In this document: in pieces, positions 1,255-18,465 of the stretch
Position numbering within the stretch: position 1 is the stretch's first letter
How the letters are laid out: each line of letters opens with the position of its first letter
Notes under the pieces: model-generated
The model's input: the letters and a program-made list of their open reading frames with translations, nothing else
Databases searched by the model: none
What the model was told of the DNA's origin: nothing
Virus record (IMG/VR): IMGVR_UViG_2731957841_000006
Span: 1 to 18,465 of that record
Length of the DNA: 18,465 nt
Source: a virus
Lineage: Duplodnaviria > Heunggongvirae > Uroviricota > Caudoviricetes
Strand: one strand, 5' to 3'
Made by a program: the position numbers and the translations under genes

Positions 1255-1368
1255 ATAAAACCGGGTGATGCAAAAGTAGCCATTTGATTCACAAGGCCAT
1301 TGACGCATCGCCCGGTTAGTTTTAACCTTGTCCACCGTGATTCACGTTCGTGAACATGTCCTTTCAGG

Positions 1369-1444
1369 GCCGATATAGCTCAGTTGGTAGAGCAGCGCAT
1401 TCGTAATGCGAAGGTCGTAGGTTCGACTCCTATTATCGGCACCA
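1369..1444 (+). tRNA. thrW: tRNA-Thr (anticodon CGT), 76 nt with encoded CCA
   Basis: GCCGATATAGCTCAGTTGGTAGAGCAGCGCATTCGTAATGCGAAGGTCGTAGGTTCGACTCCTATTATCGGCACCA folds as a cloverleaf: 7-bp acceptor stem GCCGATA/TATCGGC, anticodon loop TTCGTAA, T-loop GGTTCGACTCC. Sits directly after proA and directly before the integrase gene. Confidence 0.9.
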
Positions 1445-1458
1445 TTAAAATCAATAAG

Positions 1459-2622
1459 TTACACATCATTAGTACCTTCCTTATTTTTTGACTGGGACAA
1501 ATTTGGGACCGATGGGTTCAGGATCGAGTCTATTTGCCGTGCGTGTTCGGTAAGGTGATTAGGTGCAAGGTGAGCATATCGACGAACCATTTCGATAGAC
1601 TCCCAGCCTCCCATTTCCTGTAACACTGACAACGGGACTCCGGCTTGAACCAGCCAACTTGCCCAGGTGTGTCTCAAGTCGTGAAATCTGAAATCATCAA
1701 TACCAGCCCGTCTCAGCGCCGCTTTCCAGGCTGTGTTTGCGTCATACCGCATCTTCCTTACTGTTGGCGCTTTCGTTCCGTCTGGTTTGGTACAGCTTTC
1801 CTTGTACACAAATACCCAACGGTGATGATTCCCGATTTGTTTTTTCAATACGCGACATGCAGTATCATTCAGCGCAACGCCAATTGCGCGGTTTGATTTA
1901 CTCTCTTCCGGGTTTATCCATGCCACCCGGCGCTGCATATCTATTTGTTGCCATTCAAGGTTGATGATGTTCGAGCGTCTTAAGCCTGTTGCCAGTGCAA
2001 ATTCAACAACAGACTTTAATGGCTCCGGACATTCATCAATCAGCCTTTGTGCTTCATGGGGCTCCAGCCAGCGGATCCGTTTATTCTTTGGTTGAGGCAC
2101 TTTAATAATTGGTGCCTTATCCAGCATTTTCCATTCACGCTCTGCGGCTCTTAGTAGGGCCTTTATAAATGAAAGATGCGTAGCCTTCGTTGCAACGGAC
2201 GCTGGTTTTGGCGTGTATTCTGGAACAGGTTTCCCTTTTTTTCTGCATGCTTCTGCCCTGAGTTTCCAGTTTTCCTCATGACGCCGGTTCGTCATTTTCT
2301 GCATTGCTGAATAAATTTTTGATTCAGTAATGTCTCTTAGTTGCATTCCTGCGAAATGTTGAAGCCAGAATCCGATCCGGCTTTTGTCATCGTCCAGTGA
2401 TTTTTTATGTGCTTTCTCTTCAAGCCACCTGACACAAGCTTCCTCGAACGTTATATCAGGTATTTCACCAAGTTTGCTGACCCGCCATGCTTCAGCCTTT
2501 AGCTTGTCATGGAGTTCTGTCGCCTGCCTTTTGTCCTTTGTTCCAAGAGACTGTTTAAATCTTTTACCGTTCGGCAATGTGAAACTGGCGTACCATATTT
2601 CACCTCTGCGGAAGAGTGACAT
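1459..2622 (-). CDS. int: Phage integrase, tyrosine recombinase (P22-type, thrW-specific), 387 aa
   Basis: 387-aa ORF with C-terminal tyrosine-recombinase signature ([10 protein letters not shown]...VRRYAHL); N-terminus [22 protein letters not shown] resembles P22 Int; ATG preceded by AGAGGA; lies next to the tRNA 3' end. Confidence 0.92.
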
Positions 2623-2849
2623 TTTCTTTCCTCTGTTATGCCATCACCCGCGCTCACCTGGACAGTATGCAGCGGAGACTGAAGAGCCGCAATGCAGGCT
2701 TGTCGTGTTGTGAGGTAAGGAGATTTATTCTTAGTGGGATCTTTGCGTGTTGCCTGAAGACGCCCTGTGCGTATCCAGTTAATGGCAGTCGGTCTGGATA
2801 TCTTGAGAAAATGACAGGCCTCATCGAGTGTGAGGCTGTATGGCTCCAT
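2499..2849 (-). CDS. xis: Excisionase (Xis), 116 aa; 3' end overlaps the int start
   Basis: Internal ATG of the 2499..2933 ORF ([31 protein letters not shown], winged-helix/excisionase-like) preceded by GAGGTG at good spacing; size and position match P22-type Xis. Confidence 0.7.
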
Positions 2850-3154
2850 TATTTCACCTCTTGTTGTGACATTGTTGAAAAATGGATACCAGCTCGTTGC
2901 TGCCAGACGATCCAACCGAGAGTCATATCCCATGCCATGTATTCGTTATCGCCGTTTTTTGCTCTCCGACGATCTACTAAGTCACCGAAACGCTTTTCCA
3001 TGAATAATTCATAAGCTTCGCGTTCATCTGGTTCTACTTCCAGAGATAGGAGTGCGATTTCATAAGCACGGCGCTCAATATCGTCTCGCACGTCAAGGCT
3101 GCTGATACGCTCTTTAATTTCTTTAATCAGTTCTTTGTCGGTAAAAGTGGTCAT
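2849..3154 (-). CDS. Hypothetical prophage early protein, 101 aa
   Basis: ORF with GGAG upstream of the ATG; its stop overlaps the xis start (TAATG) and its start overlaps the stop of the upstream gene, indicating translational coupling in a leftward operon. Confidence 0.6.
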   Translation of the reverse strand: MTTFTDKELIKEIKERISSLDVRDDIERRAYEIALLSLEVEPDEREAYELFMEKRFGDLVDRRRAKNGDNEYMAWDMTLGWIVWQQRAGIHFSTMSQQEVK

Positions 3155-3516
3155 TATGCTCCAGCCTCCGGTGCTTTTGGCATTACTGCCCAGTGAGTGA
3201 TATTGACGTTTTCAAGGTCCCCGACCTGAAATGTCCACTGCCATTCTCCGGTTTCTTTTTGTCCCCAGGTGTACCAGAGAGAACGCCAGCCAATTAGCCA
3301 GCCTTCTCCGTTAGCATCGAATAACAAAACACTTTCATTTGCTGGTGGCAGTTCAGTTGACACTGGTATTACTTTGTTTTCCTGTGCTGCACATTTAGCT
3401 TCAAGCGCATCGAATTTACGCACCAGGTATTCAGCATCCGTTTCATTCACTTTCAGATCTCGCGGTACACATCTCCCACGAAGAAACCCTTCCATTTCGA
3501 AAACATTCATGCGCAT
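3154..3516 (-). CDS. Hypothetical prophage early protein, 120 aa (alternative start at 3510)
   Basis: ORF in the same leftward operon; GGAG 8 nt upstream of the ATG at 3516; ATG at 3510 overlaps the upstream stop (ATGA). Confidence 0.6.
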   Translation of the reverse strand: MRMNVFEMEGFLRGRCVPRDLKVNETDAEYLVRKFDALEAKCAAQENKVIPVSTELPPANESVLLFDANGEGWLIGWRSLWYTWGQKETGEWQWTFQVGDLENVNITHWAVMPKAPEAGA

Positions 3517-4043
3517 TTGCGTAACTCCGATAATTCGTTAAAGCGTTCCATAAACATCCCGTAGGCATGGCCTGGAGCCAGTGGAATCACGTTGAACATC
3601 TCTGTTGCCGGGATACCTTCCAGCACAGGCCAGAAAGAGCCATCATCAAGCCCGAGATCGCGGCGTTCGGTTGCCAGCATAATGAGATCGGCATATTTCA
3701 CTGGCGTGCTCATAACAGGAGGTAACCCGTATTTCTCACGGATTACGGCGTCTATTTTTTCTTCCATCCGTTTATAGTCAGGAAGAAGTCGTTTCAGTGG
3801 TGCGGGGATGTCCTGGCAATATGCTTCTGTTGCATCATGCATTAAAGCTTCAAAAGCAAATTCCTGCGGCACCAGCTGGCTGCAAAGCACCGCATGTTGG
3901 GCGACACTGTAGAAGTGTGAAAGATGTCCTGCAAAGCGACAGATATTTGAAAGGGAAACCGCGATATCGTTAATAACGATGTCGTCTTTATTTATCCTGT
4001 CATAATAAAAATGCTTCCCGGAAAAAGTTTTAATAAATGACAT
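3507..4043 (-). CDS. HD-domain metal-dependent phosphohydrolase (YfdR-like, nucleotidase family), 178 aa
   Basis: HD motifs visible in translation (RFAGH...H...MHDATEAY); ATG at 4043 preceded by GGAGAA (the ORF track begins at a GTG 27 nt upstream); resembles prophage CPS-53 YfdR as recalled. Confidence 0.8.
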   Translation of the reverse strand: MSFIKTFSGKHFYYDRINKDDIVINDIAVSLSNICRFAGHLSHFYSVAQHAVLCSQLVPQEFAFEALMHDATEAYCQDIPAPLKRLLPDYKRMEEKIDAVIREKYGLPPVMSTPVKYADLIMLATERRDLGLDDGSFWPVLEGIPATEMFNVIPLAPGHAYGMFMERFNELSELRKCA

Positions 4044-4094
4044 TTTGTTCTCCACGTATATGCGCTGCACCGCGCTGAATTCCGGTAAAAGGAA

Positions 4095-4515
4095 GCCCTC
4101 ACCGTCCGGCGATTATTGAGTCAATTACATTTCCATAAATGCCCCCGTAGGGGCGGTTAGTTTCTCCACAAAACAGAGAAGAACACCTGCGGTGGCAGCC
4201 GCCCGGATGGATTGGGTTATGAGCCCGTCGTCCGGTGATGCTCTTCTCTGTTTTGTAAAAAGGACGGTACCAGCCGGAAGCAAGGGTACAAGCTGGTACC
4301 GCCAAGACTACACACAGCATAAAGTTGTGGTGCCGGGTGCCTCCCGGTGCCTGGCGAAGGTTGCACACCAGGCGGGTGGGTATCCACAGAAGGTCGACTG
4401 TCAGCCTCAACCTTAACCCGCGTGCGCTGAGCCGCATTCACCACAACGCTAAGGATTCTCTCTGGTTGAAAATACTTAGCTGTTATGTGCCTGCTTTTAG
4501 CCACATCAGGCGAGG
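4095..4515. other. GC-rich, highly structured non-coding island (candidate structured RNA or element remnant), class unknown
   Basis: About 400 bp much more GC-rich than its flanks; open in several frames on both strands but no translation looks protein-like; nested inverted repeats (e.g. ACAAAACAGAGAAGA ... TCTTCTCTGTTTTGT enclosing ~50 nt; GGTACCAGC ... GCTGGTACC). Confidence 0.3.
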
Positions 4516-4523
4516 TGGACCTA

Positions 4524-4573
4524 GTTATTCCCCAACAACAAGGATTCGGTTAATCTGGTTATCCCCAACAACG
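4524..4573 (+). repeat. Two direct repeats GTTAT(T)CCCCAACAAC about 34 bp apart, just upstream of the 144-aa ORF
   Basis: Seen directly: GTTATTCCCCAACAACA and GTTATCCCCAACAACG; candidate regulator binding sites. Confidence 0.4.
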
Positions 4574-4587
4574 CAAAAGGAAAAGAA

Positions 4588-5022
4588 ATGTCCGGTAATA
4601 TCTATACGCTGTACAAATCCCACTGTGAAAATGTTGGAAAGTATCGGGGCATTGAAATCAGTGGGGTAGTGTCATCAGTCGAAATAAGCAAAGTTGAATC
4701 AAGGGCAACATTACTTACTCTTTTGGACCTTGTCTTACATGAGCACCGGAAGAAATTCGGCACTCCCTATAATCAGTTGAATGGGAAAAAGGCTCTGGTT
4801 CACCTTATTCTGATGAAGCATCACTGGATGCCAAAACAGATTAATGAGATGAAATTTGATGAACTTCTTCTTTCAATTCAGGATGAACTCACACTTGATA
4901 AAATAAGCGTAACCGCCCAGAAATTTTTAGATTATCGAGACTGGAGATCACAAATTCATCACTTTGATGATTTTGACGAAAATGAATGGGATCCTAATTT
5001 GTCTGCACAATATCTAAAGTAA
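4588..5022 (+). CDS. Hypothetical protein, 144 aa (immunity-region moron candidate)
   Basis: 435-nt ORF in AT-rich DNA with AGGA 6 nt upstream of the ATG; no comparable ORF on the opposite strand; no domain recognised by me. Confidence 0.55.
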   Translation: MSGNIYTLYKSHCENVGKYRGIEISGVVSSVEISKVESRATLLTLLDLVLHEHRKKFGTPYNQLNGKKALVHLILMKHHWMPKQINEMKFDELLLSIQDELTLDKISVTAQKFLDYRDWRSQIHHFDDFDENEWDPNLSAQYLK

Positions 5023-5200
5023 CATCCTGTGATAAAACCGTGATTTCCTGATCCAGTTTTTTTAAGGAGTCTATTGTTTCCTGTCGATAAGACAGCACTT
5101 CACGAAGCTGGTTTATAGCTGCCAGCTTCTTTGTCATCCACTCATAAATTTCCTCATCTGTGTAGCCAGGCGCGACGATTTTGGGTTCTGTTTTGTGCAT
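4994..5200 (-). CDS. Hypothetical protein, 68 aa; first gene downstream of the predicted PL promoter
   Basis: ATG at 5200 preceded by GAGGAG at ~7 nt; 3' end overlaps the convergent 144-aa ORF by ~29 nt; not arginine-rich, so not an obvious N homologue. Confidence 0.5.
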   Translation of the reverse strand: MHKTEPKIVAPGYTDEEIYEWMTKKLAAINQLREVLSYRQETIDSLKKLDQEITVLSQDVTLDIVQTN

Positions 5201-5244
5201 TTCACATCTCCTCAAGTTATCAGTTACTTGTTGATGGGGACCAG

Positions 5245-5257
5245 ATTGTTAAAGAGC
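5245..5257 (-). promoter_or_regulatory. boxA-like antitermination element in the PL leader
   Basis: Leftward transcript reads GCUCUUUAACAAU, identical over 13 nt to the rrn boxA core as I recall it; a 5-bp stem-loop (CAAGU...ACUUG) follows before the RBS of the 68-aa gene. Confidence 0.45.
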
Positions 5258-5259
5258 TA

Positions 5260-5283
5260 AGCGTCCTGTAGGGCGCTTTTTTG
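5260..5283 (+). terminator. Candidate intrinsic terminator on the + strand
   Basis: AGCGUCC-UGUA-GGGCGCU stem-loop (one G.U pair) followed by UUUUUUGUUG on the + strand. Confidence 0.4.
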
Positions 5284-5367
5284 TTGCTAACGAATCATCC
5301 TGGACTTCATATGCCCCAGGCGGCTACTTCGTGGGCGTCCTGCCTGTTCGTTGTTTCGCTTGGGTAC

Positions 5368-5395
5368 ATTATGTATCTTAAAGGTACATTGTCAA
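5368..5395 (-). promoter_or_regulatory. PL-like early-left promoter with overlapping operator half-sites
   Basis: On the minus strand: TTGACA, 16-nt spacer, CATAAT; flanked by GGTACA/TGTACC motifs of the same type as the OR palindromes. Confidence 0.5.
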
Positions 5396-5398
5396 GTA

Positions 5399-5422
5399 TA
5401 AAAAAACCTGCCGAAGCAGGTT
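5399..5422 (-). terminator. Intrinsic terminator of the cI transcript
   Basis: Minus-strand RNA ACCUGC-UUCG-GCAGGU followed by UUUUUUUAUA, immediately downstream of the cI stop. Confidence 0.6.
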
Positions 5423-5434
5423 CATAAACATTGA

Positions 5435-6109
5435 TTAGGCTTTGATTTTGTATCTTCTTGGTTTTCCTGAGAAAATCACTGTACCAATTATAGAGCAATT
5501 ACCGTTGATCTTAATGTAAGGCTCAGGCCAGTTTGGGTTTAACGCTTTGAGATAACGCTGTGTCCCATCTTCTATCAACCTTTTGAAGGTGGTTTCACCT
5601 GTATCGTGCATCAATGCAATAACGTCGTCACCGTGGCAGGCAGGTACTTCAGGATCGACAAAAATCATGTCTCCCGGGCGGTACTCATCAATCATTGAAT
5701 CACCTATCACCCGCAAGATATAAGTCATTTCCCCACAGGGTACAGGGCAGGGATACGTTTCTGCTGTGCTCAAATCAACCTCAGAATATCCAACTTCTTT
5801 CCATGCTCCGGCCTGTACCCATGATATGACAGGGACTAATGTGATTTGTTTATTAGTGATTGAAACATCAGGTTTTTTTGTGATGTTCGTTGTCTGGTGT
5901 TCTTGATCGAGCCATCCGACAGGCAGGTCGAAACATTTTTCGATGTGTCGTGCCATGCTGTCACCGATATTTTTAGTAGCACCATCTCCCATAAACCTGC
6001 TGGTCTGGGTTGGCTCGCGATCAATCATAGTGGCAAAGGAAGAATTCCCGCCAACACCATCTCTCAGTTTTCTGGCGTTAGACCGCCGGATGTCATGGAT
6101 TGTTTTCAT
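5435..6109 (-). CDS. cI: CI-like prophage repressor, LexA/S24 peptidase family, 224 aa
   Basis: N-terminal HTH region plus C-terminal S24 autopeptidase signature (GDSM ... K); divergent from the cro-like gene across an operator-rich region; no SD upstream of the ATG (probably leaderless). Confidence 0.88.
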   Translation of the reverse strand: MKTIHDIRRSNARKLRDGVGGNSSFATMIDREPTQTSRFMGDGATKNIGDSMARHIEKCFDLPVGWLDQEHQTTNITKKPDVSITNKQITLVPVISWVQAGAWKEVGYSEVDLSTAETYPCPVPCGEMTYILRVIGDSMIDEYRPGDMIFVDPEVPACHGDDVIALMHDTGETTFKRLIEDGTQRYLKALNPNWPEPYIKINGNCSIIGTVIFSGKPRRYKIKA

Positions 6110-6123
6110 AACGAAATTAAAAC

Positions 6124-6192
6124 CCTTGTACCGTTAAGGTACAAGTATCTTGAAGGTTCATTTCAATCATGTAATATGTACACCGGAGGTAC
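6124..6192. promoter_or_regulatory. OR/PR region: operator palindromes and rightward promoter
   Basis: Perfect 21-bp palindrome CTTGTACCGTTAAGGTACAAG; second site TGTACACCGGAGGTACA overlapping the cro RBS; candidate PR TTGAAG, 16-nt spacer, TAATAT at ~6149-6176. Confidence 0.55.
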
Positions 6193-6199
6193 ATATTGT

Positions 6200-6400
6200 A
6201 TGAAAGCGTATTGGGACTCTTTAACCAAAGAACAGCAGGGCGAGTTGGCCGGAAAAGTTGGCTCAACACCTGGCTACTTACGGCTGGTTTTCAATGGCTA
6301 TAAAAAAGCCAGTTTTGTGCTGGCTAAAAAACTTGAGCAATGCACGTCAGGTGCAATTACGAAATCTGACTTAAGACCGGATATCTATCCGAAAGATTAG
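6200..6400 (+). CDS. Cro-like DNA-binding regulator (YdaS-like), 66 aa
   Basis: ATG with GGAGG ~10 nt upstream; small HTH-type protein (MKAYWDSLTKEQQGELAGKVGSTPGYLRLV...) divergent from cI. Confidence 0.8.
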   Translation: MKAYWDSLTKEQQGELAGKVGSTPGYLRLVFNGYKKASFVLAKKLEQCTSGAITKSDLRPDIYPKD

Positions 6401-6431
6401 CAGAACACTTTCAATTTTTAACCACAGAACG

Positions 6432-6995
6432 ATGAGGCTAATCGTGGGTAAGCATCACTGGAAAATAGAAAAACAGCCTGAGTGGTACGTGAAAGCTGTC
6501 AGAAAAACTATCGCGGCGTTGCCGGGTGGTTACGCTGAAGCGGCTGACTGGCTCGATGTAACAGAAAACGCTTTATTCAACCGCCTTCGTGCAGATGGCG
6601 ATCAGATTTTCCCGCTGGGATGGGCAATGGTTTTACAGCGTGCTGGTGGCACTCACTTCATTGCTGATGCTGTGGCGCAGTCTGCAAATGGCGTCTTTGT
6701 GTCTCTTCCTGACGTCGAGGATGTGGACAACGCCGATATCAACCAACGCCTGCTGGAGGTCATTGAACAGATCGGCAGTTATTCAAAACAGATTCGTTCA
6801 GCAATTGAAGACGGTGTAGTGGAACCGCATGAGAAGACAGCAATTAACGACGAGTTGTACCTCTCAATTTCGAAGCTGCAGGAGCATGCAGCACTGGTCT
6901 ACAAAATTTTTTGCATTTCAGAAAGTAATGACGCCCGCGAGTGTGCAGCTCCGGGCGCCGTGGCGTGTCGTGACTGTGGAGAAACTAACGCATGA
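6432..6995 (+). CDS. YdaT-like prophage regulatory protein (CII/CP76-like family), 187 aa
   Basis: ORF immediately after the cro-like gene, as in the Rac ydaS-ydaT arrangement; family assignment from memory. Confidence 0.65.
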
Positions 6996-7330
6996 ACAGT
7001 TTAACAACACACTACCGTCGCTCGCAACTGATTGCGCTTCCTGTACCGGGTGGAAAAGCGAAGGTGGAGTATTGCTATGCAGTGAATGTACCAGGTGACA
7101 GGGAAATTGTAACCCACAGCTTTGCAGAGTGGGCTGTGGGGGATTTCAACCGGCAGAAGGAGGCAGTCCTTTGCGACAAGTTAACCGCTGGTTCAAAGAT
7201 CACTACGGAGTGCCCGTCAGAGTCATTCGTTGGGAGCCGGAAACACAACGGGTTATCTACCTCCGTGAAGGCTATGAGCATGAGTGCTTCAGCCCGCTCG
7301 AACAGTTTCGTCGTAAATTCAGGGAAATAG
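6992..7330 (+). CDS. Hypothetical protein, 112 aa (frame uncertain, see findings)
   Basis: ATG overlaps the YdaT-like stop (ATGA); stop lies 9 nt before the replication-gene start; C-terminal half is low-complexity. Confidence 0.4.
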
Positions 7331-7350
7331 AGGTCGGTCATGAGCACTAA
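7171..7350 (+). CDS. Candidate small protein, ~59 aa, in the alternative frame (TTG start)
   Basis: AGGAGG 7 nt upstream of an in-frame TTG; protein-like translation (...[55 protein letters not shown]); its stop overlaps the next gene's start. Confidence 0.3.
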
Positions 7351-8293
7351 ATTAACCGGCTATGTATGGGATGGTTGCGCAGCGTCAGGCATGAAATTAT
7401 CCAGCGTGGCAATTATGGCCCGCCTGGCTGATTTCAGTAATGACGAAGGTGTGTGCTGGCCATCAATTGAAACCATTGCCCGCCAGATTGGCGCGGGGAT
7501 GAGTACCGTCAGAACGGCTATCGCACGGCTGGAAGCAGAAGGCTGGTTAACGCGTAAGGCGCGTCGCCAGGGTAACCGCAATGCGTCGAATGTTTATCAG
7601 CTTAACGTTGCGAAGCTTCAGGCAGCGGCATTTTCTCAACTGTCAGATTCTGACCCGTCAAAATCTGACGTATCAAAATCTGACCCGTCAAAATTTGATG
7701 CGTCGAAATCTGGCAAAAAAGCGGGTTTTCACCCGTCAGAATCTGGCGGGGATCCGTCAGTAAAATCAAAACATGATCCGTCAGATAAAAAACCTTCTCG
7801 TCCGGACGCTTCGCAACCGGACACGCAGACGGCTGAACAGGATTTTTTAACTCGCCATCCTGATGCGGTTGTATTCAGCCCTAAAAAGCGCCAGTGGGGA
7901 ACGCAGGATGATTTGACCTGCGCACAGTGGCTCTGGAAAAAAATCATTGCCCTGTACGAGCAGGCCGCCGAATGTGACGGCGAGGTGGTTCGTCCCAAAG
8001 AACCGAACTGGACAGCATGGGCAAACGAAATTCGCCTGATGTGTGTGCAGGATGGTCGTACTCACAAACAAATCTGCGAGATGTACAGCCGCGTCAGCCG
8101 CGATCCGTTCTGGTGCCGTAACGTGCTCAGCCCGTCGAAGTTGCGGGAAAAATGGGATGAGCTTTCCCTGCGCTTATCGCCGTCCGTCAGCACGCACACA
8201 GAAAAACGTGAAGAGCGGTGCTTACGGAAAAGCAGCAAGCGCGCTGTATCGGGTGATGAATGGTATCTGTCAGGGAATTACGTGGGGGCTTAA
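7340..8293 (+). CDS. Phage replication initiation protein (O-like, N-terminal winged-helix DNA-binding domain), 317 aa
   Basis: AGAGG 6 nt upstream of the ATG; N-terminal HTH-like region; DNA iterons inside the gene as in lambdoid O genes. Confidence 0.75.
7643..7790 (+). repeat. Iteron array (candidate ori) inside the replication gene
   Basis: Five tandem 15-bp units (TCAAAATCTGACCCG-like) at 7643-7717 encoding SDPSK-type peptide repeats, then an A-rich tract and three further CCGTCAG motifs. Confidence 0.6.
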
Positions 8294-8403
8294 TGACGAC
8301 GTTAACTCAGTGTCAGCAGCAGGTGCTGGATATGCTGATTTCTTATCAGAAAGAACGTGGCTTCCCGCCAACCAATCAGGAGGTGGCAACCATGCTGGGA
8401 TAA
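8293..8403 (+). pseudogene. 36-codon remnant of a gene with a LexA-like N-terminal DNA-binding domain, truncated at the deletion junction
   Basis: ATG overlaps the replication-gene stop; [36 protein letters not shown] aligns with the LexA N-terminus (LTARQQEVFDLI...GMPPTRAEIAQRLG) as recalled, then stops where tail-fibre homology begins. Confidence 0.4.
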
Positions 8404-8405
8404 CC

Positions 8406-11051
8406 CATGCGACTGATGCTGCAGGCTCAGCGCGTGCAGCCAGCACGTCAGCCGGACAGGCCGCGACGTCGGCTCAGGAGGCGTCTTCCAGCGCAGGAAC
8501 GGCATCAACAAAGGCCACTGAAGCATCAAAAAGTGCTGCCGCTGCAGAGTCCTCAAAAAGCGCGGCGGCCACCAGTGCCGGTGCGGCGAAAACGTCAGAA
8601 ACGAATGCCGCAGCGTCACAACAATCAGCAGCCACTTCTGCATCCACTGCGACGACGAAAGCGTCAGAAGCCGCCACTTCAGCCCGGGATGCGGCGGCCT
8701 CCAAAGAGGCGGCAAAATCATCAGAAACGAACGCCTCCACAAGCGCCAGCAGTGCAGCCTCCTCGGCAACGGCGGCAGGAAATTCCGTGAAGGCGGCAAA
8801 AACGTCCGAGACGAATGCTAAGTCTTCTGAAACGGCAGCGGAACAGAGCGCCTCAGCTGCGGCAGACTCTGAGACAGCAGCTGCATCATCGGCCCGTGAG
8901 GCGTCCATTAAGGCAGAGGAGGCAGCAGTCAGTGCCACCGCCGCCGGAAAATCGGCAGAAAGCGCCGCATCATCCGCTTCAACAGCCACAACGAAGGCTG
9001 GCGAAGCCACTGAACAGGCCAGCGCAGCAGCGAGGTCTGCTTCCGCAGCGAAGACATCCGAAACGAACGCGAAAGCGTCGGAAACCAGCGCAGAATCCTC
9101 AAAAACGGCTGCCGCATCGTCCGCCAGTTCGGCGGCGTCATCGGCATCATCGGCGTCTGCTTCAAAAGATGAGGCGACCAGACAGGCGTCAGCAGCGAGG
9201 GGCAGCGCCACGACGGCATCCACGAAGGCGACAGAGGCTGCTGGCAGTGCGGCAGCGGCAGCACAGAGCAAAAGTACGGCAGAATCCGCAGCAACGCGCG
9301 CCGAGACAGCAGCAAAACGGGCAGAGGATATTGCATCCGCCGTGGCGCTTGAGGATGCGAGCACGACGAAAAAGGGGATAGTACAGCTCAGTAGTGCGAC
9401 CAACAGCACTTCCGAGTCACTGGCGGCAACACCAAAAGCCGTTAAGGCCGCGTATGACCTGGCTAACGGGAAATACACCGCACAGGATGCAACGACAGCA
9501 CAGAAAGGGATAATCCAGCTAAGCAGCGCGACCAACAGCACGTCTGAAACGCTTGCCGCGACACCAAAGGCAGTAAAAGCAGCCAATGACAATGCTGAGA
9601 AACGTCTGCAGAAAGATCAGAACGGTGCGGATATCCCTGGCAAAGATACCTTTACGAAAAATATTGGTGCCTGCCGTGCCTTCGGTGGGTCAGTAAGCAC
9701 AACAACAGGAAACTGGACGACTGCACAGTTTATCGAGTGGCTGGATTCTCAGGGAGCATTTAACCATCCATACTGGATGTGCAAGGGTTCCTGGTCTTAT
9801 GGCAATAATAAAATCATTACTGATACTGACTGCGGTAATATTCATCTCGCCGGAGCTGTCATTGAAGTAATGGGGATAAAGTCAGCGATGACGATCCGCA
9901 TTACCACACCGACCACCTCCACTGGTGGTGGAACAACTAACGCCCAGTTTACCTATATTAATCACGGAACAGATTATTCACCTGGCTGGCGAAGGGACTA
10001 TAACTCCAGAAATAAGCCAACGGCATCAGAGATCGGGGCGTTACCGTCAGGTGGAACAGCAGTATCATCAGTTAATCTGGCTTCAAAAGGTCGGGTAACC
10101 GCGCTGACAGACAATACGCAGGGGGCAGCAGGTCTTGAGTTATACGAGGTGTATAACAACGGATATCCAACAGCGTATGGAAATATCATTCACCTGAAAG
10201 GGATGACAGCCGTTGGCGAAGGTGAGTTACTCATCGGCTGGAGTGGTACAAGCGGTGCTCATGCTCCGGCATTTATTCGTTCACGACGGGATACGACCGA
10301 CGCAAACTGGTCGCCGTGGGCGCAGCTTTACACCTCGGCTCATCCTCCTGCAGAGTTTTATCCAGTCGGTGCACCAATCCCGTGGCCATCAGATACCGTT
10401 CCGTCTGGCTATGCCCTGATGCAGGGGCAGACTTTTGACAAATCTGCATACCCGAAACTTGCAGTTGCTTATCCGTCAGGCGTGATCCCTGATATGCGTG
10501 GCTGGACGATTAAGGGCAAGCCCGCCAGTGGTCGGGCCGTATTATCTCAGGAACAGGACGGCATTAAATCGCACACCCACAGCGCCAGCGCATCCAGTAC
10601 GGATTTGGGGACGAAAACCACATCGTCGTTTGATTACGGAACCAAATCCACGAATAACACCGGGGCGCATACCCATAGTATTAGCGGGACCGCAAATAGT
10701 GCCGGTGCGCACCAACACAAGAGTTCCGGTGCATTTGGTGGCACGAACACGAGCATTTTCCCTAATGGTTATACCGCGATTTCAAATCTAAGCGCGGGGA
10801 TTATGAGCACAACAAGCGGTAGTGGCCAGACTCGTAATGCAGGGAAGACATCATCAGATGGTGCTCATACCCACTCGCTGTCCGGCACTGCTGCAAGCGC
10901 AGGCGCACATGCACATACTGTCGGTATTGGTGCTCATACGCACTCCGTTGCGATTGGTTCACATGGACACACCATCACCGTTAACGCTGCTGGTAACGCG
11001 GAAAACACCGTCAAAAACATCGCATTTAACTATATTGTGAGGCTTGCATAA
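8406..11051 (+). pseudogene. stf: Side tail fibre protein (Stf-like), 5'-truncated; lacks the N-terminal tail-attachment region and its own start codon
   Basis: Ala/Ser/Thr-rich repeat region, two copies of the tail-fibre repeat KGI(V/I)[11 protein letters not shown](S/T)[11 protein letters not shown], and His-rich GAHTHS-type C-terminal motifs; similarity to Rac StfR (from memory) begins mid-protein; the ORF's upstream 120 codons overlap the replication gene in another frame. Confidence 0.7.
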
Positions 11052-11635
11052 TGGCATTCAGAATGAGTGAACAACCACGGACCATAAAAATTTATAATCT
11101 GCTGGCCGGAACTAATGAATTTATTGGTGAAGGTGATGCATATATTCCGCCTCATACAGGTCTGCCAGCAAACAGTACCGATATTGCACCGCCAGATATT
11201 CCGGCTGGCTTCGTGGCTGTTTTCAACAGTGATGAGTCATCGTGGCATCTCGTTGAAGATCATCGGGGTAAAACGGTTTATGACGTGGCTTCCGGCGACG
11301 CGTTATTTATTTCTGAACTCGGTCCGTTACCGGAAAATGTTACCTGGTTATCGCCGGAAGGGGAGTTTCAGAAGTGGAACGGCACAGCCTGGGTGAAGGA
11401 TACGGAAGCAGAAAAACTGTTCCGGATCCGGGAGGCGGAAGAAACAAAAAACAACCTGATGCAGGTAGCCAGTGAGCATATTGCGCCGCTTCAGGATGCT
11501 GCAGATCTGGAAATTGCAACGGAGGAAGAAACCTCGTTGCTGGAAGCCTGGAAGAAGTATCGGGTGTTGCTGAACCGTGTTGATACATCAACTGCACCTG
11601 ATATTGAGTGGCCAGAAGAACCAGACACCGTGTAA
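11051..11635 (+). CDS. tfa: Tail fibre assembly protein (Tfa), 194 aa
   Basis: Start overlaps the stf stop (TAATG); typical Tfa size, position and sequence character. Confidence 0.85.
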
Positions 11636-11647
11636 GCAAAAAAGAAA

Positions 11648-11690
11648 AACCGCAGACACGACGTATGCATGACGTGCTGCGGTTTATGCT
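11648..11690 (+). terminator. Candidate terminator hairpin downstream of tfa (copy 1 of a duplicated ~40-bp sequence)
   Basis: CCGCAG(A)CACG ... CGTGCTGCGG stem followed by TTTATGCTT; a near-copy occurs at ~15811-15853. Confidence 0.45.
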
Positions 11691-11751
11691 TATCACTTAA
11701 AGACTCAAAAATTAGGTGAGTAACGGACCGGGGACATAGCTCCTTTTTTTC

Positions 11752-12573
<822 letters not shown>

Positions 12574-12880
12574 CTAATCCTTTGAATTCACATAGTATAA
12601 AAAAGATACTTTTCCTCATAATGTGAGCTAATTTTATGTTTCGTTTGATGATTGGACCGGTCTCGAAAACCGTAGGCACGTAGTATGCGTTAATTTATGA
12701 ACAAACTACTTGTCTGCTGTTTTTCTGTCATTAGTCGTATATAGAATGATTCTCTATGCCTAACAAAGCATCACCAGTGCTAGATTACGTTGTAGTCACT
12801 GTTTAAATATCCAGATAAAATATTTCCTTCTGGGTTGAATGAGTGATAGAGTTTCACCCATTAGACCCGTTGGAGGAATT

Positions 12881-14314
12881 ATGTCTGAATTTGAAGTGTT
12901 GGCACAGCATCTGCTGAAGGAAGCCGAGGCGGAAGAAAAGCTGCGACAGGAAAATGATAAAAAGCTTATCGAGAAAGTGCTGGAAATCTATGATCAGAAG
13001 TATGTAGCTGAATTACTGAGAAAAGTCGGAAAAAATGAGTGGAGCCGTGAAACCATTAACCGCTGGATTAATGGCAAGTGTTTACCAAAATCGTTGACTT
13101 CAGTAGAAGAGTCTCTTCTGCGTAAGATGCTACCAGAACCACCTGCAAACCATCCGGAATATGCTTTCCGCTTCATTGACTTATTTGCTGGAATTGGAGG
13201 GATACGGAAAGGTTTTGAGGCCATTGGAGGCCAGTGTGTTTTTACCAGTGAATGGAATAAAGATGCTGTGCGTACATACAAGGCCAACTGGTTTAACGAT
13301 GAACAGGTGCATAAATTCAATCTCGATATTCGGGAAGTCACGCTGAGTGATAAAACCGATGTATTGGAAACGGATGCTTATGCATATATTGATGAGCATG
13401 TGCCGGATCATGATGTGCTTCTTGCGGGGTTCCCGTGCCAGCCATTTAGCCTTGCTGGTGTTAGTAAGAAAAACTCACTTGGTCGTGCGCATGGTTTTGA
13501 ATGTGAAGCACAAGGAACACTTTTTTTTGACGTGGCACGTATTATACGAGCAAAAAAACCGGCAATTTTTGTGCTGGAAAATGTCAAAAATCTGAAGAGC
13601 CATGATAAGGGTAAAACTTTCAAAGTCATTATGGAGACCCTTGACGAGCTGGGCTACGAAGTTGCCGATGCTGCAGAAATGGGAAAAAACGATCCAAAGA
13701 TTATCGATGGGAAGCATTTTTTGCCTCAGCATCGTGAACGCATTGTTCTGGTCGGATTTAGACGAGATCTGAATATTCACAAGGGGTTTACCTTGCGTGA
13801 TATCAGTCGTTTTTATCCGGAACACCGCCCATCATTTGGTGAATTGCTGGAGCCTGTAGTCGACAGTAAATATATACTTACGCCAAAACTATGGGAGTAC
13901 CTTTATAACTACGCCAAAAAGCATGCAGCCAAGGGGAATGGTTTTGGCTTTGGGTTGGTCAATCCTGAGAATAAGGAAAGCATTGCACGCACACTTTCTG
14001 CCAGATATCACAAAGACGGATCAGAAATTCTTATTGATCGTGGTTGGGATATGGCAACGGGAGAGGCTGACTTTATGAATGAGAGTAACCAGGCTCGTCG
14101 ACCACGCAGGCTGACTCCCCGAGAGTGCGCACGCCTTATGGGGTTTGAAAAACCTGGAGGGAAACCATTCCGTATTCCGGTTTCAGATACTCAGTCATAT
14201 CGGCAGTTCGGTAACTCCGTTGTGGTGCCAGTATTTGAAGCCGTTGCCAGACTTCTGGAACCCTATATCCTCAAAGCTGTTTCTGCTGATGCTGGTAAGA
14301 CTGGGCAGCCTTGA
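12881..14314 (+). CDS. DNA (cytosine-5) methyltransferase, Dcm/M.EcoRII-like (predicted CCWGG), with N-terminal HTH-like extension
   Basis: m5C-MTase motifs: [15 protein letters not shown] (motif I), GFPCQPFS (motif IV), ENV (motif VI), QFGNSV; GGAGG upstream of the ATG at 12881; N-terminus MSEFEVLAQ resembles M.EcoRII as recalled. Confidence 0.88.
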
Positions 14315-14317
14315 GAA

Positions 14318-14346
14318 CACCTCCCGGCCTTTTAAGCCGGGAGTCA
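14318..14346. terminator. Hairpin between the convergent methyltransferase and endonuclease genes
   Basis: CTCCCGGC-CTTTTAA-GCCGGGAG, 8-bp stem. Confidence 0.4.
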
Positions 14347-14348
14347 GC

Positions 14349-15557
14349 CTATGATAGTTCAGCGTAAAGTTCTATCAGCTCAGTAATGAATGCTCCGAGC
14401 GTTATTAATTCTTCTCTAACTGCTTCTGGGTATTTTTTATGTAAAGTTGATGGTACAACGAGTCTGACACCCGCATCTTTCATTTCTCGGTATTGTGCTG
14501 AAGAAACACCTTCTTGCAGCGTAAATAAATGTACCTGATGGATTTTATCTGCTTCATTCAGTATCTGACGCCAGCGATCTTTGCAGGTGGTCTTTACTGC
14601 CAGCATACGTAAGTTTTCTACAGGAAATTCAACGTCATGATATGCCTCTGCTGAAGGAAACAGGAAATCTGGTTTTTTATTACCTTCAGTAACTGCCTGA
14701 GTGGAGAAATGTCGTAGTCCGTGCTCGATAAAAAGCTTCTCTAGGTGAAGTTCAAGTGATTTACCTGCCCTTGATTTACGTCGATTACTGACAGAGTTGG
14801 CTAATGCAATAAACTCATCTACAGAATTGAATCCTTTCTTAATAATATCAAGAACATGTAATTCCTCGACGAGTAGAAAAATATCATACTCGACACGCCG
14901 ACGGTCAATCAGTTGCTCATCTGGATCCTTGGAGTTTTTAGCATAATGGCCAGCAGCATATTGAATAATTTCGTTTCCAGAAGGAAAACGCTTCTTCCAG
15001 TCTTCAGGAATAACATATTTATGATTTACTGGAGTTTGCTGAAGAGACAATCCGCCCAAAATTTGTCCGGCAGGGCCGGAAATTAGGGTTCCAGGTATGA
15101 TTTCGCCAATAGCAGACTCGATGATATCCTCTTCATCGGGATTGACGCAGACCCATATATCTACCTCGGAACAGTCAGTGTTCTGTTCGTTTAACCTGAA
15201 AGCAAGAATTGTGAGGGCTCCTGTATTTTCAGAGTTCTGTAATGGACTTCCTCTCCCCCAGCGCGTAATTCTTTTTTCGTTTCGGGTCTTACCAAAATAA
15301 CGGTTGTTGTAATAAATTGCGCGTGCTTGGGTATCAGGGCAATCATGGGATGATACATGCGCAGTAAGGAAGACTGAAGGGTTCAGTTCGCGAGTATGAT
15401 TGATAGAAGGAAAAAGCTTTTCAACGATATTTGAGGGGATATAAAGTCCGACCTGATGGCCACCTGTTGCGCCTGTGTCGTTTGCAGAAAGGCGTTTGAT
15501 GTAGATAAAGTAATTCCCGCTTGCGATATCAAGCAGCCAGTTATGAAAAACCGACAT
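14349..15557 (-). CDS. Type IIE restriction endonuclease, EcoRII-like, ~402 aa
   Basis: Translation closely resembles EcoRII as I recall it (MSVFHNWLL..., ~404 aa) and is convergent with a Dcm-type methyltransferase, the known EcoRII R-M arrangement. Confidence 0.82.
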   Translation of the reverse strand: MSVFHNWLLDIASGNYFIYIKRLSANDTGATGGHQVGLYIPSNIVEKLFPSINHTRELNPSVFLTAHVSSHDCPDTQARAIYYNNRYFGKTRNEKRITRWGRGSPLQNSENTGALTILAFRLNEQNTDCSEVDIWVCVNPDEEDIIESAIGEIIPGTLISGPAGQILGGLSLQQTPVNHKYVIPEDWKKRFPSGNEIIQYAAGHYAKNSKDPDEQLIDRRRVEYDIFLLVEELHVLDIIKKGFNSVDEFIALANSVSNRRKSRAGKSLELHLEKLFIEHGLRHFSTQAVTEGNKKPDFLFPSAEAYHDVEFPVENLRMLAVKTTCKDRWRQILNEADKIHQVHLFTLQEGVSSAQYREMKDAGVRLVVPSTLHKKYPEAVREELITLGAFITELIELYAELS

Positions 15558-15639
15558 ATACATCCCTTTGTTAACATACAGTCAGGGTTAACATTTTTCC
15601 ATAGTTATAGATAAGCGGCTAGGAACTTAAGGGAAAAAC

Positions 15640-15664
15640 AAAAAGCCCGCATAAGCGGGCTTTT
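15640..15664. terminator. Bidirectional terminator-like hairpin upstream of the restriction gene
   Basis: AAAAAGCCCGC-ATAA-GCGGGCTTTTT: perfect 7-bp stem flanked by A-run and T-run. Confidence 0.45.
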
Positions 15665-16173
15665 GTGTCACTCGAGAGCCGCGGCTCCTTTGCGTATCTT
15701 TTTTGTCTCCTCACCGTCTGGTCGGTGTCCTGCTGAGACTGCTAATTTCCTGTTTTTGTTAGTACTGTCCTAGAACTGTCCAATCATGATTGGTGGGCTG
15801 GCGGAGTTGAAACCGCAGACACGTCGTATGTAAGAACGTGCTGCGGCTGGCTGGCCAGCTTCTGATAGTGCGAATATTGAATGATTTCTATCTGTTATAG
15901 ATTTTACCGTATTTCGGCATGAATGAAACTGAATATCCTCCCACCGATTCTCCATGACTTTACGCCACTGTCTCTAGGGCTGCTATGTGCCAGGAGCAGA
16001 CGTTACTAACATCTATCTGCATCAATCTGTGGGGAGCAGAACCGTGATATGTTAACTGCATCCAAACGGAGTCAACACCAGAAAAAATCCTCCTAGTAGG
16101 ACGGTGCACTAGTATTCATCTTGTTCTAATCTCAATCCACAGCGGTAAAAATTGCGAAGAAAAAGGGATTTAT

Positions 16174-18465
16174 ATGCTTGAAAGAATTCATCAAATTACC
16201 AGCGTGGGTTTATTCCAGGATATCCGTCCTGCTGGTATGTCCTTTAAAAAAATGACCTTTGTCTATGCTGATAATGGGCGTGGTAAATCCACCCTTGCGT
16301 CAATTCTGCGTTCCTACACTGAATTAAATCCAGATATTGTACGGCACAGGAAAACGATTGGGGAAACGACCCCTCAAAATATTCATCTGCAGTTTTCGCA
16401 GGGAAATCGTGCGATTTACGATAACGATACATGGAATGGTAAGTATTCAGATGTGCACGTCTTCGACCTAGATTTTGTTGACCGTAATGTTTACTCAGGT
16501 GGTGAAATCAGCGCTAGCCATAGAAAGCGACTGCTGAGTTTTGCGCTGGGCAGTGATGCGGTAGCCGCGAGGGCTGCTTTTATTGATGCATCAGACAAGG
16601 CAGAGGAGGCCAAGAGAGTTACGAGACTGGCAAGTGAAAAGCTGACAGTAGCCCGGGGGAATGTAACTCTAGCAAAATACATAAAGCCTGTTCAGGAAGA
16701 TAACATTCAGGAAAAAATTGCATTAGTCGAATCAGAACTGGATCTCTGCAAAAGAATAGAGACGATCCGCAACCGTACGGGTTATCTTTCGTTACCTCTT
16801 TACGCTCCTGATTTCAGTTCTTTTTTTTCCACTCTTGCAGCTAGCTATGACAGCCTCAGTGCGGGTGCAGAAGAGGTCGTCTGTGCGCATATTGACCATA
16901 TCAATGTCGAAGGTTTTGAGCGATGGGCGAGCAACGGCCTTGATTATATAAAAGACGAATATTGTCCTTTCTGTACGCAAAGCCTGGAGGGTATTGAACT
17001 GATCCGGTACTACCGGGAGCGGTTTAATCTTGCATACAAAGCCTTACTTAATCAGGTCACAGGCCTAGATAAAGTTGTGGCGACTGCCATGCGCGTTTTC
17101 AATCTGGCCTTACTTGAAAGCAAGATTGAGCAGGCTGGTTTAGTGACTGAAAATTGGAAAGATTGTCTCCAGTTGCCCGTGAGTCTCCCTGATTTAGATA
17201 AAATTAAAGCTAGTTTGGAAGGTCTTCAATCATCGCTGAACCGCTTAACGGAAGCCAAGAAAAACGATCCGCTTGCAAAGACCCAAGGCGACTATGAAAA
17301 AGAAATCGCGGATGCAGTAACTGCAATCAATGATGAGCTTTCTATCTTTAATTCGGGCGTGGAAGCTGCCAATCTGGATATTCAGGCTTATAAAGAGGCG
17401 CTTGAAACCAAAAATGAAGAAACCCTGCGGGTTACATTATCCCAGTATGAAGCAACACGACTTCGTCTATCACCTGAGATAGTAGGTTTTATCTCTGATT
17501 ATCAGACCGCTAAAACTGCTGAAGTGGTTGCCTCTGAACTGAAGGAAACACGGAGGGCTGAACTCAATGCGATCATGGACTCGACCCTTGGAAAGTATCA
17601 ATCCTCCATCAATGATTTATTGATGAAGTTTGGTGCAAGCTTTCGCATCACAGAAATTAATTATAACTATGCTGGCGGCGGTGAGCCTAAGTCTGAATAT
17701 GCAATTGAACTTAGAGGGGAAAAGATTTCGCTAACGGGAGAAGAATCCAGTTTCCGGAGCTCATTGAGTGAAGGGGACAAAAGGACGCTAGCCTTCGCAT
17801 TCTTTATTTCAGTGTTGCTTCATGACGTTGATCTTGAGAGAAAAATTGTAGTGATTGATGATCCGATGTGTAGTCTGGACAATCATCGCAGGAACCACAC
17901 AATCACCATCATTAAACAGATTTACCTTCGCAGCTTGCAGGTAATCATCTTGGCGCACGACCTGTTCTTTATCCGTACCATGCGAGATGAGTTCCTGAAA
18001 ATACCTGCTACTCAAATGCAGGACATTTCAACCTTACGCATTGTCAACATTGCTGGTGATTTCAGTAGCTTGGATAAACTAGATATCGATCTGGAATGTG
18101 AATCTCCCTACTATAAAAATCATCGTCTGGTGAGCGGATTTGCCGATGGTGCTCATCATCAGCTTCACGATACGGCGGTGGCGATCAGACCGCTTCTTGA
18201 AGGGTATCTGCATCGTCGTTTCCCGGGGCAAATTTCACCGGGAAATCTGTTTGGAGAGGTAGTAGCGCAGATTGCACAAGCACAACCGAGCGATCCGTTA
18301 TTCTTCGCTAAATCACTGGTACCTGAGTTGAATGAAATTAACAATTATGCTGGTCGCTATCATCATGACACGAACCCTCAGGCATCATCAGAACCCATCA
18401 CGCCAGGTGAACTGATGTCTTACTCTCGACGGGCTTTGAATGTGATTTATCGCGGAAACATATGA
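16174..18465 (+). CDS. AAA_13-family ABC-type ATPase with CxxC (zinc-hook-like) motif and C-terminal domain; RloC/PrrC-like candidate anticodon nuclease, 763 aa
   Basis: Walker A (ADNGRGKST), central coiled-coil-like region with YCPFCTQ, ABC-signature-like LSEGDKRTLAFAFFIS, Walker B (KIVVIDDPMCSLD), His/Arg-rich C-terminal ~150 aa; AAAGGG 6 nt upstream of the ATG; adjacent to an R-M system. Confidence 0.7.
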   Translation: MLERIHQITSVGLFQDIRPAGMSFKKMTFVYADNGRGKSTLASILRSYTELNPDIVRHRKTIGETTPQNIHLQFSQGNRAIYDNDTWNGKYSDVHVFDLDFVDRNVYSGGEISASHRKRLLSFALGSDAVAARAAFIDASDKAEEAKRVTRLASEKLTVARGNVTLAKYIKPVQEDNIQEKIALVESELDLCKRIETIRNRTGYLSLPLYAPDFSSFFSTLAASYDSLSAGAEEVVCAHIDHINVEGFERWASNGLDYIKDEYCPFCTQSLEGIELIRYYRERFNLAYKALLNQVTGLDKVVATAMRVFNLALLESKIEQAGLVTENWKDCLQLPVSLPDLDKIKASLEGLQSSLNRLTEAKKNDPLAKTQGDYEKEIADAVTAINDELSIFNSGVEAANLDIQAYKEALETKNEETLRVTLSQYEATRLRLSPEIVGFISDYQTAKTAEVVASELKETRRAELNAIMDSTLGKYQSSINDLLMKFGASFRITEINYNYAGGGEPKSEYAIELRGEKISLTGEESSFRSSLSEGDKRTLAFAFFISVLLHDVDLERKIVVIDDPMCSLDNHRRNHTITIIKQIYLRSLQVIILAHDLFFIRTMRDEFLKIPATQMQDISTLRIVNIAGDFSSLDKLDIDLECESPYYKNHRLVSGFADGAHHQLHDTAVAIRPLLEGYLHRRFPGQISPGNLFGEVVAQIAQAQPSDPLFFAKSLVPELNEINNYAGRYHHDTNPQASSEPITPGELMSYSRRALNVIYRGNI

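Follow-up and report, generated by a model that had tools for sequence, protein, structure and literature searches.

Two described groups of proteins combine an ABC ATPase with a C-terminal HEPN nuclease that carries an Arg-x3-Glu...His triad. PrrC of Escherichia coli, from the EcoprrI type Ic hsd locus, represents proteins of ~340–416 residues without a coiled coil or zinc hook. A type I restriction-modification (R-M) system always accompanies and silences it, and its activators are T4 Stp and dTTP. RloC, described from Geobacillus kaustophilus (GkaRloC) and Acinetobacter baylyi (AbaRloC) (Davidov & Kaufmann 2008; Klaiman et al. 2012, 2013), is roughly double PrrC in size (658–897 residues), and its published motif is Arg-x3-Glu-x36–52-His, with a Ser often preceding the His (PMC2610378). 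RloC is reported to be self-silenced and is rarely linked to R-M genes (PMC2610378, PMC3458546); it has an internal switch, and PrrC-type silencing by an R-M partner is not expected (PMC3458546). ABC–HEPN proteins have also been noted in E. coli prophages (the APECO1_4465 group; Anantharaman et al. 2013, PMC3710099), where they are predicted to act independently of R-M systems and to exclude other phages. Here we compare these systems with a gene for a 763-residue protein carried by an E. coli prophage in an 18,465-nucleotide stretch of viral DNA (positions 1 to 18,465 of IMG/VR record IMGVR_UViG_2731957841_000006), which we call the window.

A preliminary description of this DNA had proposed that the gene encodes a restriction-linked anticodon nuclease of the RloC/PrrC type, paired with the EcoRII-type system beside it. 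We conclude that the gene probably encodes a stand-alone RloC-family defence protein, which is carried as prophage cargo and does not need a partner protein. Such proteins are already known to some extent, as RloC-like proteins of E. coli prophages have been mentioned earlier and PADLOC flags the family.

Family placement and predicted architecture

We assigned the protein to its family by Pfam AAA_13, by hhalign and by the COG-derived names of its homologues. It matched Pfam AAA_13 (PF13166) at 1.9e-38 (133 bits against a gathering cut-off of 36). It also matched the PADLOC class PDC-S06 across residues 1–691 (best model PDLC04895, 7.4e-72). PDC-S06 is a single-gene computational candidate class of 14 models that takes in many AAA_13 subfamilies, and we found no experimental test of it in the literature mentioning PDC-S06. 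With the NCBIfam models nothing rose above threshold, and the sub-threshold matches were to ABC, RecF and Rad50 only. A search of 5.8 billion proteins gave a tight family whose members are ~760 residues long. Several homologues (37–83% identity) are named 'wobble nucleotide-excising tRNase' (tRNA nuclease) by JGI or UniRef, including an enterobacterial protein of 83% identity.

As the canonical AAA_13 reference we took a 737-residue protein of an E. coli IncX1 plasmid (AAA_13 427 bits, profile positions 1–692 of 713). Thirty of its relatives were aligned, many of which are named as tRNase. In this canonical group C264, C267, R644, E648 and H695 are invariant, and these residues make up the published RloC signature, namely a CxxC hook and Arg-x3-Glu-x36–52-His with Ser before the His (PMC2610378). 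The hhalign comparison of the window family with the canonical group (probability 100%, E 4e-40, 602 columns) was collinear from residue 1 through the RFP beyond R-x3-E, and superposed the P-loop, CxxC, signature, Walker B/D-loop and R-x3-E. Pairwise BLASTP of the window protein with a canonical member (~23% identity) gave the same superposition. The RloC-like nature suspected in the preliminary description is upheld by these profile matches. From the alignments, we take the gene to be a full-length homologue of the RloC / AAA_13 / COG4694 family, belonging to a divergent subfamily of this described family. This separate, tightly conserved subfamily has the motifs RP[ML]LEGYLHRRFP and FHHDTNP.

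The open reading frame (ORF) is uninterrupted on the + strand (start ATG at 16174, stop codon at 18463–18465). A direct motif search recovered the 763-residue ORF with Walker A, a signature-like motif, Walker B and CPFC, all as read in the preliminary description (Table 1). We then scored conservation in two alignments, one of 32 sequences and one of 118 homologues with 36–95% identity. G37, K38, C264, C267, S532, D562, D563, R672, E676, H730 and H731 were invariant in the 118 sequences. H595 was invariant in the smaller alignment and nearly invariant (at least 90%) in the larger one.

The full-length AlphaFold2 model had a mean predicted local distance difference test (pLDDT) score of 85.3. 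In this model residues 1–110 and 486–635 form a mixed alpha/beta head, interrupted by a helical insert of ~370 residues (114–485). CPFC lies in the least confident, non-helical stretch of the insert; it was aligned with the invariant CxFC of the canonical group, and the zinc hook is putative. The C-terminal domain (residues 638–760) is all-alpha, with five helices and a pLDDT of ~90, and a fold search found its predicted structure to resemble HEPN RNase domains. By Foldseek, the head and coiled coil resemble SMC, Rad50, JetC, Lamassu LmuB and the retron-associated PtuA.

Table 1. Positions of the features discussed in the text (numbered along the window)
Feature	Position	Strand	Basis or remark
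Predicted RloC-family gene	16174..18465	+	763 aa; same as WP_016233232.1 (annotated 'AAA family ATPase')
Walker A / P-loop, G35-R-G-K38-S-T40	16276..16293	+	Motif search; G37, K38, T40 invariant
Helical, coiled-coil-like insert (residues 114–485) splitting the ABC head as in Rad50/SMC	16513..17628	+	AlphaFold2 and Foldseek
C264-P-F-C267, putative zinc hook	16963..16974	+	Both Cys invariant in 118 sequences
ABC signature-like L531-S-E-G-D535	17764..17778	+	Motif search; aligns with Rad50 signature region
Walker B and D-loop, V558-V-I-D-D-P-M-C-S-L-D569	17845..17880	+	Motif search, conservation, Rad50 alignment
H-loop (switch) histidine H595	17956..17958	+	Motif search and alignments
C-terminal HEPN-fold domain (residues 636–763), predicted anticodon-nuclease module	18079..18462	+	
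R672-P-L-L-E676, Arg-x3-Glu of the RloC/PrrC triad	18187..18201	+	Invariant; aligned to R644-x3-E648
H730-H731, candidate catalytic His	18361..18366	+	Position and invariance only
5' non-coding part of the 2.65-kb cassette	15982..16173	+	Homology to Qin-like context begins at 15982
Left terminal inverted repeat TGTGCCAGGAGCAGACGTT	15986..16004	+	Right copy 153 bp past window end (locus L012 12447-12465)
EcoRII-type restriction endonuclease (context)	14349..15563	-	EcoRII-N 5e-60, EcoRII-C 1e-71; divergent from the RloC-like gene
Dcm-type C5 cytosine methyltransferase (context)	12839..14314	+	Pfam/PADLOC
PD-T4-3 (GIY-YIG) defence gene (context)	11752..12528	-	Pfam/PADLOC
DUF2130-bearing loci among distant relatives			L016, L020, L024, L026, L028, L034, L035, L041, L052, L054, L055, L057, L059, L062, L065, L082, L085, L092

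Compared with the described systems, the window protein falls within the published size range of RloC and shares with it the ABC motifs, a coiled-coil insert with CxxC at ~35% of the length, and a C-terminal module with R-x3-E followed by a candidate His. Both occur as single cargo of integrated phages, with some relatives located in R-M loci of type I or type III. PrrC shares the logic of an ABC ATPase with a C-terminal HEPN nuclease, but has nothing comparable to the 370-residue insert; moreover, the window gene is without hsd genes, and activation by T4 Stp and dTTP does not apply to it. Rad50, SbcC and SMC have a head split by a coiled coil in the same way, with the CxxC resembling the Rad50 zinc hook; to this the window protein adds a fused HEPN domain. 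LmuB (Lamassu) and PtuA (Septu, retron Ec83/Eco7) have split heads without HEPN and work with the separate partners LmuA and PtuB, as Rad50 and SbcC do with Mre11 and SbcD, and no gene of the Mre11/SbcD type neighbours the window gene in its E. coli contexts.

The prophage ABC–HEPN proteins of the APECO1_4465 group match the window protein in their E. coli prophage site and in joining an ABC ATPase to HEPN. The 'E. coli APECO1 RloC' (Klaiman et al. 2012, PMC3458546) can be likened to it by description only. Neither APECO1 RloC nor APECO1_4465 was found on browsing 790–889 kb of APEC O1, and the nucleotide searches gave no APEC O1 match. In deposited phage genomes the nucleotide search gave no match and tblastn gave two weak partial matches only; among free phages that have been sequenced, the gene is therefore not known.

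The C-terminal domain and the proposed mode of action

The preliminary description could not place an Arg-Glu-His triad and left room for a divergent or different toxic domain. We observed that R672-x3-E676 and H730-H731 are both present and invariant across the family, which speaks against such an effector. The two histidines lie 53 and 54 residues past E676 in the sequence FHHDTNP, preceded by Phe/Tyr. They are assigned indirectly, by invariance and position only. The HEPN motif R-x4–6-H is not conserved, the nearest arrangements being R672-x7-H680 and N723-x6-H730. PrrC and RloC are themselves atypical in the HEPN active-site motif (PMC3710099), and its absence is therefore no argument against membership in RloC.

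A profile of the C-terminal domain found 1124 representatives in 1.84 billion proteins. The best 150 matches were all proteins of ~760 residues or fragments of such proteins, which ties the domain to the ATPase–insert–HEPN architecture. In a PDB sequence search the profile gave one weak match only, to GyrB (residues 679–740 against E. coli GyrB ~598–659, E 0.002–0.01). We regard this as chance, as the fold search points to HEPN.

By analogy with the Geobacillus and Acinetobacter RloC proteins (PMC2610378, PMC3458546, PMC3874168), the zinc hook and the ATPase would hold the nuclease silent in the resting state. DNA ends or breaks arising from phage infection or genotoxic stress would bind the Rad50-like head, and ATP hydrolysis would then free the HEPN nuclease. 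As in the published RloC, the nuclease would cut the anticodon loops of certain tRNAs, on the 3' side of the wobble nucleotide first and on its 5' side afterwards. Excision of this nucleotide would leave a lesion beyond repair by phage Pnk/Rnl, so that translation would halt and the infection would abort.

Several points weigh against the reading of the protein as a stand-alone RloC-family tRNase. Some concern the nuclease domain itself. Taken alone, the domain had no match among Pfam and PADLOC models, and the match to the PADLOC PrrC model (5e-7) was limited to the C-lobe of the ATPase part. An hhalign comparison of the C-terminal profile with the C-terminus of one canonical protein aligned nothing but the R-x3-E helix, at low probability, and the full-length profile comparison stops short of the His region. 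The His spacing is one or two residues beyond the published 36–52, with Phe/Tyr in place of the Ser. GkaRloC and AbaRloC were compared with the window protein through their published descriptions. The tRNase activity of the protein and of its subfamily is predicted only, and we infer the RNase substrate (tRNA or other RNA), the trigger and the phage range alike. Other points concern the gene. It is rare, being present in 8 of 5426 complete E. coli genomes; no sigma-70 consensus promoter was detected upstream of it; and one of the eight complete-genome copies is split by the insertion sequence (IS) IS1A (NZ_CP053787.1 2307548–2310615).

The alternative that survives best keeps the architecture and changes the job of the HEPN domain. 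It would cut mRNA, rRNA or another RNA, or tRNA without wobble excision, and its trigger would not be DNA ends but, for example, a phage protein. The HEPN fold is common to mRNases (LsoA, RnlA), Csm6 and others. The His region is unlike that of canonical RloC (x53 and FHHDTNP as against SH), and the C-terminal profile describes a closed family (~1100 representatives) of one architecture. In addition, 18 of the 80 distant relatives described below have a DUF2130 partner, for which we found no report in RloC. On the other side, homology to the tRNase-annotated group is collinear over the full length and takes in the R-x3-E helix, and the characterised ABC–HEPN fusions of the clade (PrrC and RloC) are all anticodon nucleases. 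We therefore consider this alternative unlikely, although it deserves more weight than any of those that follow, and we prefer the RloC-type anticodon nuclease.

Relation to the EcoRII system and to other restriction loci

The neighbours named in the preliminary description were confirmed. The EcoRII-type endonuclease and the Dcm-type methylase gave strong Pfam/PADLOC matches, and integrase, tail, cI-like and cII-like genes place them in a prophage. The ecoRII and RloC-like genes are divergent, with 610 bp between them. A further proposal, that the two are functionally paired, was not supported by the distribution of the genes.

In the inspected complete-genome copies, a Qin-like lambdoid prophage carries the gene in its early region, where a DUF977 gene and hokD flank it and R-M genes are absent from the vicinity; none of the eight complete-genome copies is accompanied by the R-M block. 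The exact protein is indexed in 991 blocks of the collection of public assemblies. Ten of its contexts were listed, comprising eight Qin-like, one Rac-like and one with the arrangement of the window. The Qin-like and Rac-like contexts carry the 100%-identical gene and no R-M gene. Conversely, the block of PD-T4-3, Dcm and EcoRII beside a tail-fibre assembly gene was present (at least 80% coverage) in 242 complete genomes, none of them with the ATPase gene. Neither the window nor the other E. coli contexts contain hsd genes, and the E. coli contexts contain no Mre11/SbcD-type neighbour.

The junction between EcoRII and the ATPase gene could have been a chimera of the assembly. We rejected this, as the same junction is present in the complete chromosome CP134644.1, which has the arrangement of the window. 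The junction is thus real but rare.

These data bear on a reading in which the nuclease is coupled to restriction, being silenced or signalled by EcoRII/Dcm as PrrC is by EcoprrI, and firing when a phage disables restriction. The two genes stand side by side and point away from each other, in an arrangement that recurs in CP134644.1, and distant relatives lie inside type I or type III-like R-M loci. EcoRII cuts would also make DNA ends, a known activator of RloC, and synergy in trans is conceivable. However, nine of the ten listed contexts and all eight complete-genome copies are without the R-M block, and the block is without the ATPase in the 242 genomes. The gene also came as a repeat-bounded cassette in place of PD-T7-1 (see below). 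Reports, moreover, describe RloC as self-silenced and as seldom linked to R-M genes, and the literature searched held no case of PrrC or RloC coupled to a type II enzyme. Coupling to EcoRII is therefore largely refuted by the distribution and we consider it very improbable; the adjacency looks accidental, not functional.

The family as a whole gives a different picture. We surveyed the neighbourhoods of 80 loci, one genome per species, from many bacterial phyla and two archaea (31–48% identity to the window protein). Neighbours were called as simple ORFs, and the pooled family scans give the commonest families only. Five relatives (L025, L032, L044, L049 and L077) lie between hsdS and hsdR of type I loci, the classical position of prrC/rloC. 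Twelve have type III-like Mod (N6_N4_Mtase) and/or Res or SNF2 helicase genes alongside. In 18 loci (listed in Table 1) a DUF2130 gene (PF09903, ~430 aa) stands immediately upstream on the same strand, 50–65 bp away, and this pair is often within a type III-like island of the order SNF2 – DUF2130 – RloC – Mod – Res. DUF2130 belongs to the PD-(D/E)XK superfamily and its function is unknown (PMC3424549). No report of a DUF2130 partner for RloC was found in the literature searched. It may be an Mre11-like nuclease partner of the Rad50-like tRNase in these phyla. None of the hsd, Mod/Res or DUF2130 partners is present in the E. coli contexts. The RloC family, but not the E. coli copy, is restriction-linked, and the name 'restriction-linked ORF' still holds at the family level.

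A repeat-bounded cassette in a prophage defence hotspot

Pairwise alignments showed that a 2.65-kb segment, from window position 15982 to 153 bp past the end of the window, is common to the Qin-like context, and that both flanks of this segment are common to strain NT1F31. At the site equivalent to window 16009–18465, NT1F31 (NZ_CP045190.1, locus L003) has a 449-residue PD-T7-1 gene (10718–12067, PADLOC 3e-156), and its cassette (L003 10388–12337) has the same kind of repeat ends. The RloC-like cassette has replaced a PD-T7-1 cassette, and the gene is thus an interchangeable cassette in a defence hotspot at the prophage end. This discrete, single-gene cassette recurs at several prophage positions, all of them defence hotspots. 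EcoRII/Dcm and PD-T4-3 are independent defence modules sharing this hotspot. The GC content of the RloC-like gene is ~44–45%, close to that of the adjoining defence genes. The E. coli average is ~51%, and the low value is consistent with horizontal acquisition.

The boundary repeats are imperfect, inverted and 19–27 bp long (TGWGCSAGGAGCGGACGTT), often with GTCCGCT in front. The right repeat of the cassette, as reverse complement, reads TGAGCGAGGAACGGACGTT, and at the Qin-like and Rac-like sites an outer GTCCGCTT lengthens the repeat to 27 bp. We searched for other copies with a 19-mer pattern having four two-fold degenerate positions, and observed exact matches in 93 viral contig stretches (L096–L188). 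When three substitutions were allowed, 68 bounded cassettes were obtained, of 0.46–6.5 kb, mostly with a single gene and in either orientation. Such cassettes occur in prophages and islands of enterobacteria. Adjacent cassettes are divided by a palindromic composite of ~72 bp made of two mutually inverted half-sites (23 examples, most of them exactly 53 nt apart). The flanking GTCCGCT, which was outside the search pattern, is conserved at ~70–88%, and most of the repeat sites are therefore not chance matches.

The cassettes carry 88 proteins of at least 100 residues, which fall into 70 clusters; this cargo is hypervariable, and defence genes are abundant in it. Among the matches are Shedu SduA, HEC-08, a type IV restriction enzyme, PARIS AriAB and Shosta ShosA, together with PD-T7-1, PD-T7-5, PD-T4-5, Septu PtuA/PtuB and several PDC candidates, as well as Abi_alpha, Zeta toxin, RES, RelA_SpoT and HEPN_LA2681. 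The genes most commonly flanking the cassettes are those for tail fibres and tail-fibre assembly. At a coverage of at least 80%, the composite element is present in 825 of 5426 complete E. coli genomes, also in non-prophage islands, and it is never annotated in RefSeq. The boundary repeat had no match in Rfam, and no prior description of it was found in the literature searched, the coverage of which is incomplete. We considered an integron attC site, as the repeat ends are AAC...GTT, but the GTTRRRY fit is lacking and both repeats travel with the cargo. Tentatively, the repeats could belong to an undescribed integron-like or transposon-like system for the site-specific exchange of defence cassettes, with a putative recombinase, although we hold this to be rather doubtful. 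Alternatively, they may merely be conserved linker sequences for homologous exchange.

A strong terminator-like hairpin with a 10-bp stem (AAAAGCCCGC...GCGGGCTTTT) lies at window 15641–15664 (-), in the interval that separates ecoRII from the cassette, and is oriented against leftward transcription from the cassette site toward ecoRII.

The prophage itself is a remnant. Its early region is CPS-53/KplE1-like (integrase 1459–2622, cI-like 5435–6109, cII-like 6432–6995, O-like 7340–8293) and is joined directly, at window ~8293–8402, to a tail-fibre gene that lacks ~140 N-terminal codons; tail-fibre and tail-fibre assembly genes occupy 8043–11635. Because of this 5' truncation, the 1002-residue ORF at 8043–11051 (start GTG at 8043) is partly a fortuitous extension. 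None of the complete RefSeq E. coli genomes contains the junction of the early region with the tail-fibre gene, and the match of CP134644.1 to the window begins only at 8398. The junction of the left part of the window (1 to ~8400) may be a genuine hybrid formed by deletion or else an artefact of assembly. A P2-like hotspot, guessed from PD-T4-3 and the tail-fibre genes, was discarded, as the surrounding genes are lambdoid (J, lom, stf and tfa in the related strain; cI-, cII- and O-like genes in the window). Beside the integrase, a 417-residue ORF (window 1–1254, +) matched phrog_13417, a family of unknown function, end to end (4e-291) and had no PADLOC match.

The gene could also be a decaying, unexpressed passenger of a defective prophage with no present function. 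In the window the prophage is what a deletion has left, and a consensus promoter was not detected. Besides the E. coli copy split by IS1, other copies carry IS3-family elements in the stretch just upstream that separates the left repeat from the ORF (L007 8471–9699; L013 8285–9850). These IS insertions could be a sign of selection against a potentially toxic gene, or could come from IS activity alone. We regard decay as even less probable than coupling to EcoRII, as the ORF is intact, is as long as its homologues across many phyla and retains all of the catalytic motifs. Further, the identical protein recurs in the 991 assembly blocks, and RloC genes are typically low-expressed (PMC2610378).

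Least probable of all is a Rad50/SbcC-like prophage ATPase for DNA repair or tethering, with a non-catalytic RNA- or DNA-binding C-terminus and no toxic role: the PDB sequence search with the whole protein returned Rad50/ABC heads only and did not find a solved PrrC or RloC, the best solved-structure matches are Rad50/SMC heads and some HEPN domains are non-catalytic (PMC3710099), but the E. coli contexts lack an Mre11/SbcD-like partner, R672, E676 and H730/H731 are invariant across phyla, the gene sits in defence hotspots beside PD-T4-3 and R-M genes and is interchangeable with PD-T7-1, and PADLOC carries the family as a defence candidate.

Taken as a stand-alone RloC-family protein, the gene adds one more prophage-encoded candidate for abortive infection in E. 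coli, from a family already present in defence-finding tools. The analysis also corrects a tempting inference: adjacency to EcoRII does not imply a PrrC-like coupling. No direct demonstration of phage defence by RloC was found in the literature searched. The subfamily is compact, conserved and confidently modelled, and its host is tractable. It would thus offer an E. coli testbed for phage protection by RloC and for the DNA signal that trips the zinc-hook/ATPase switch. Of greater interest than the gene itself may be the repeat-bounded cassette structure by which this and many other defence genes move from one prophage hotspot to another, and the recurrent DUF2130–RloC pair in the type III-like R-M islands of other phyla may likewise outrank it in interest.

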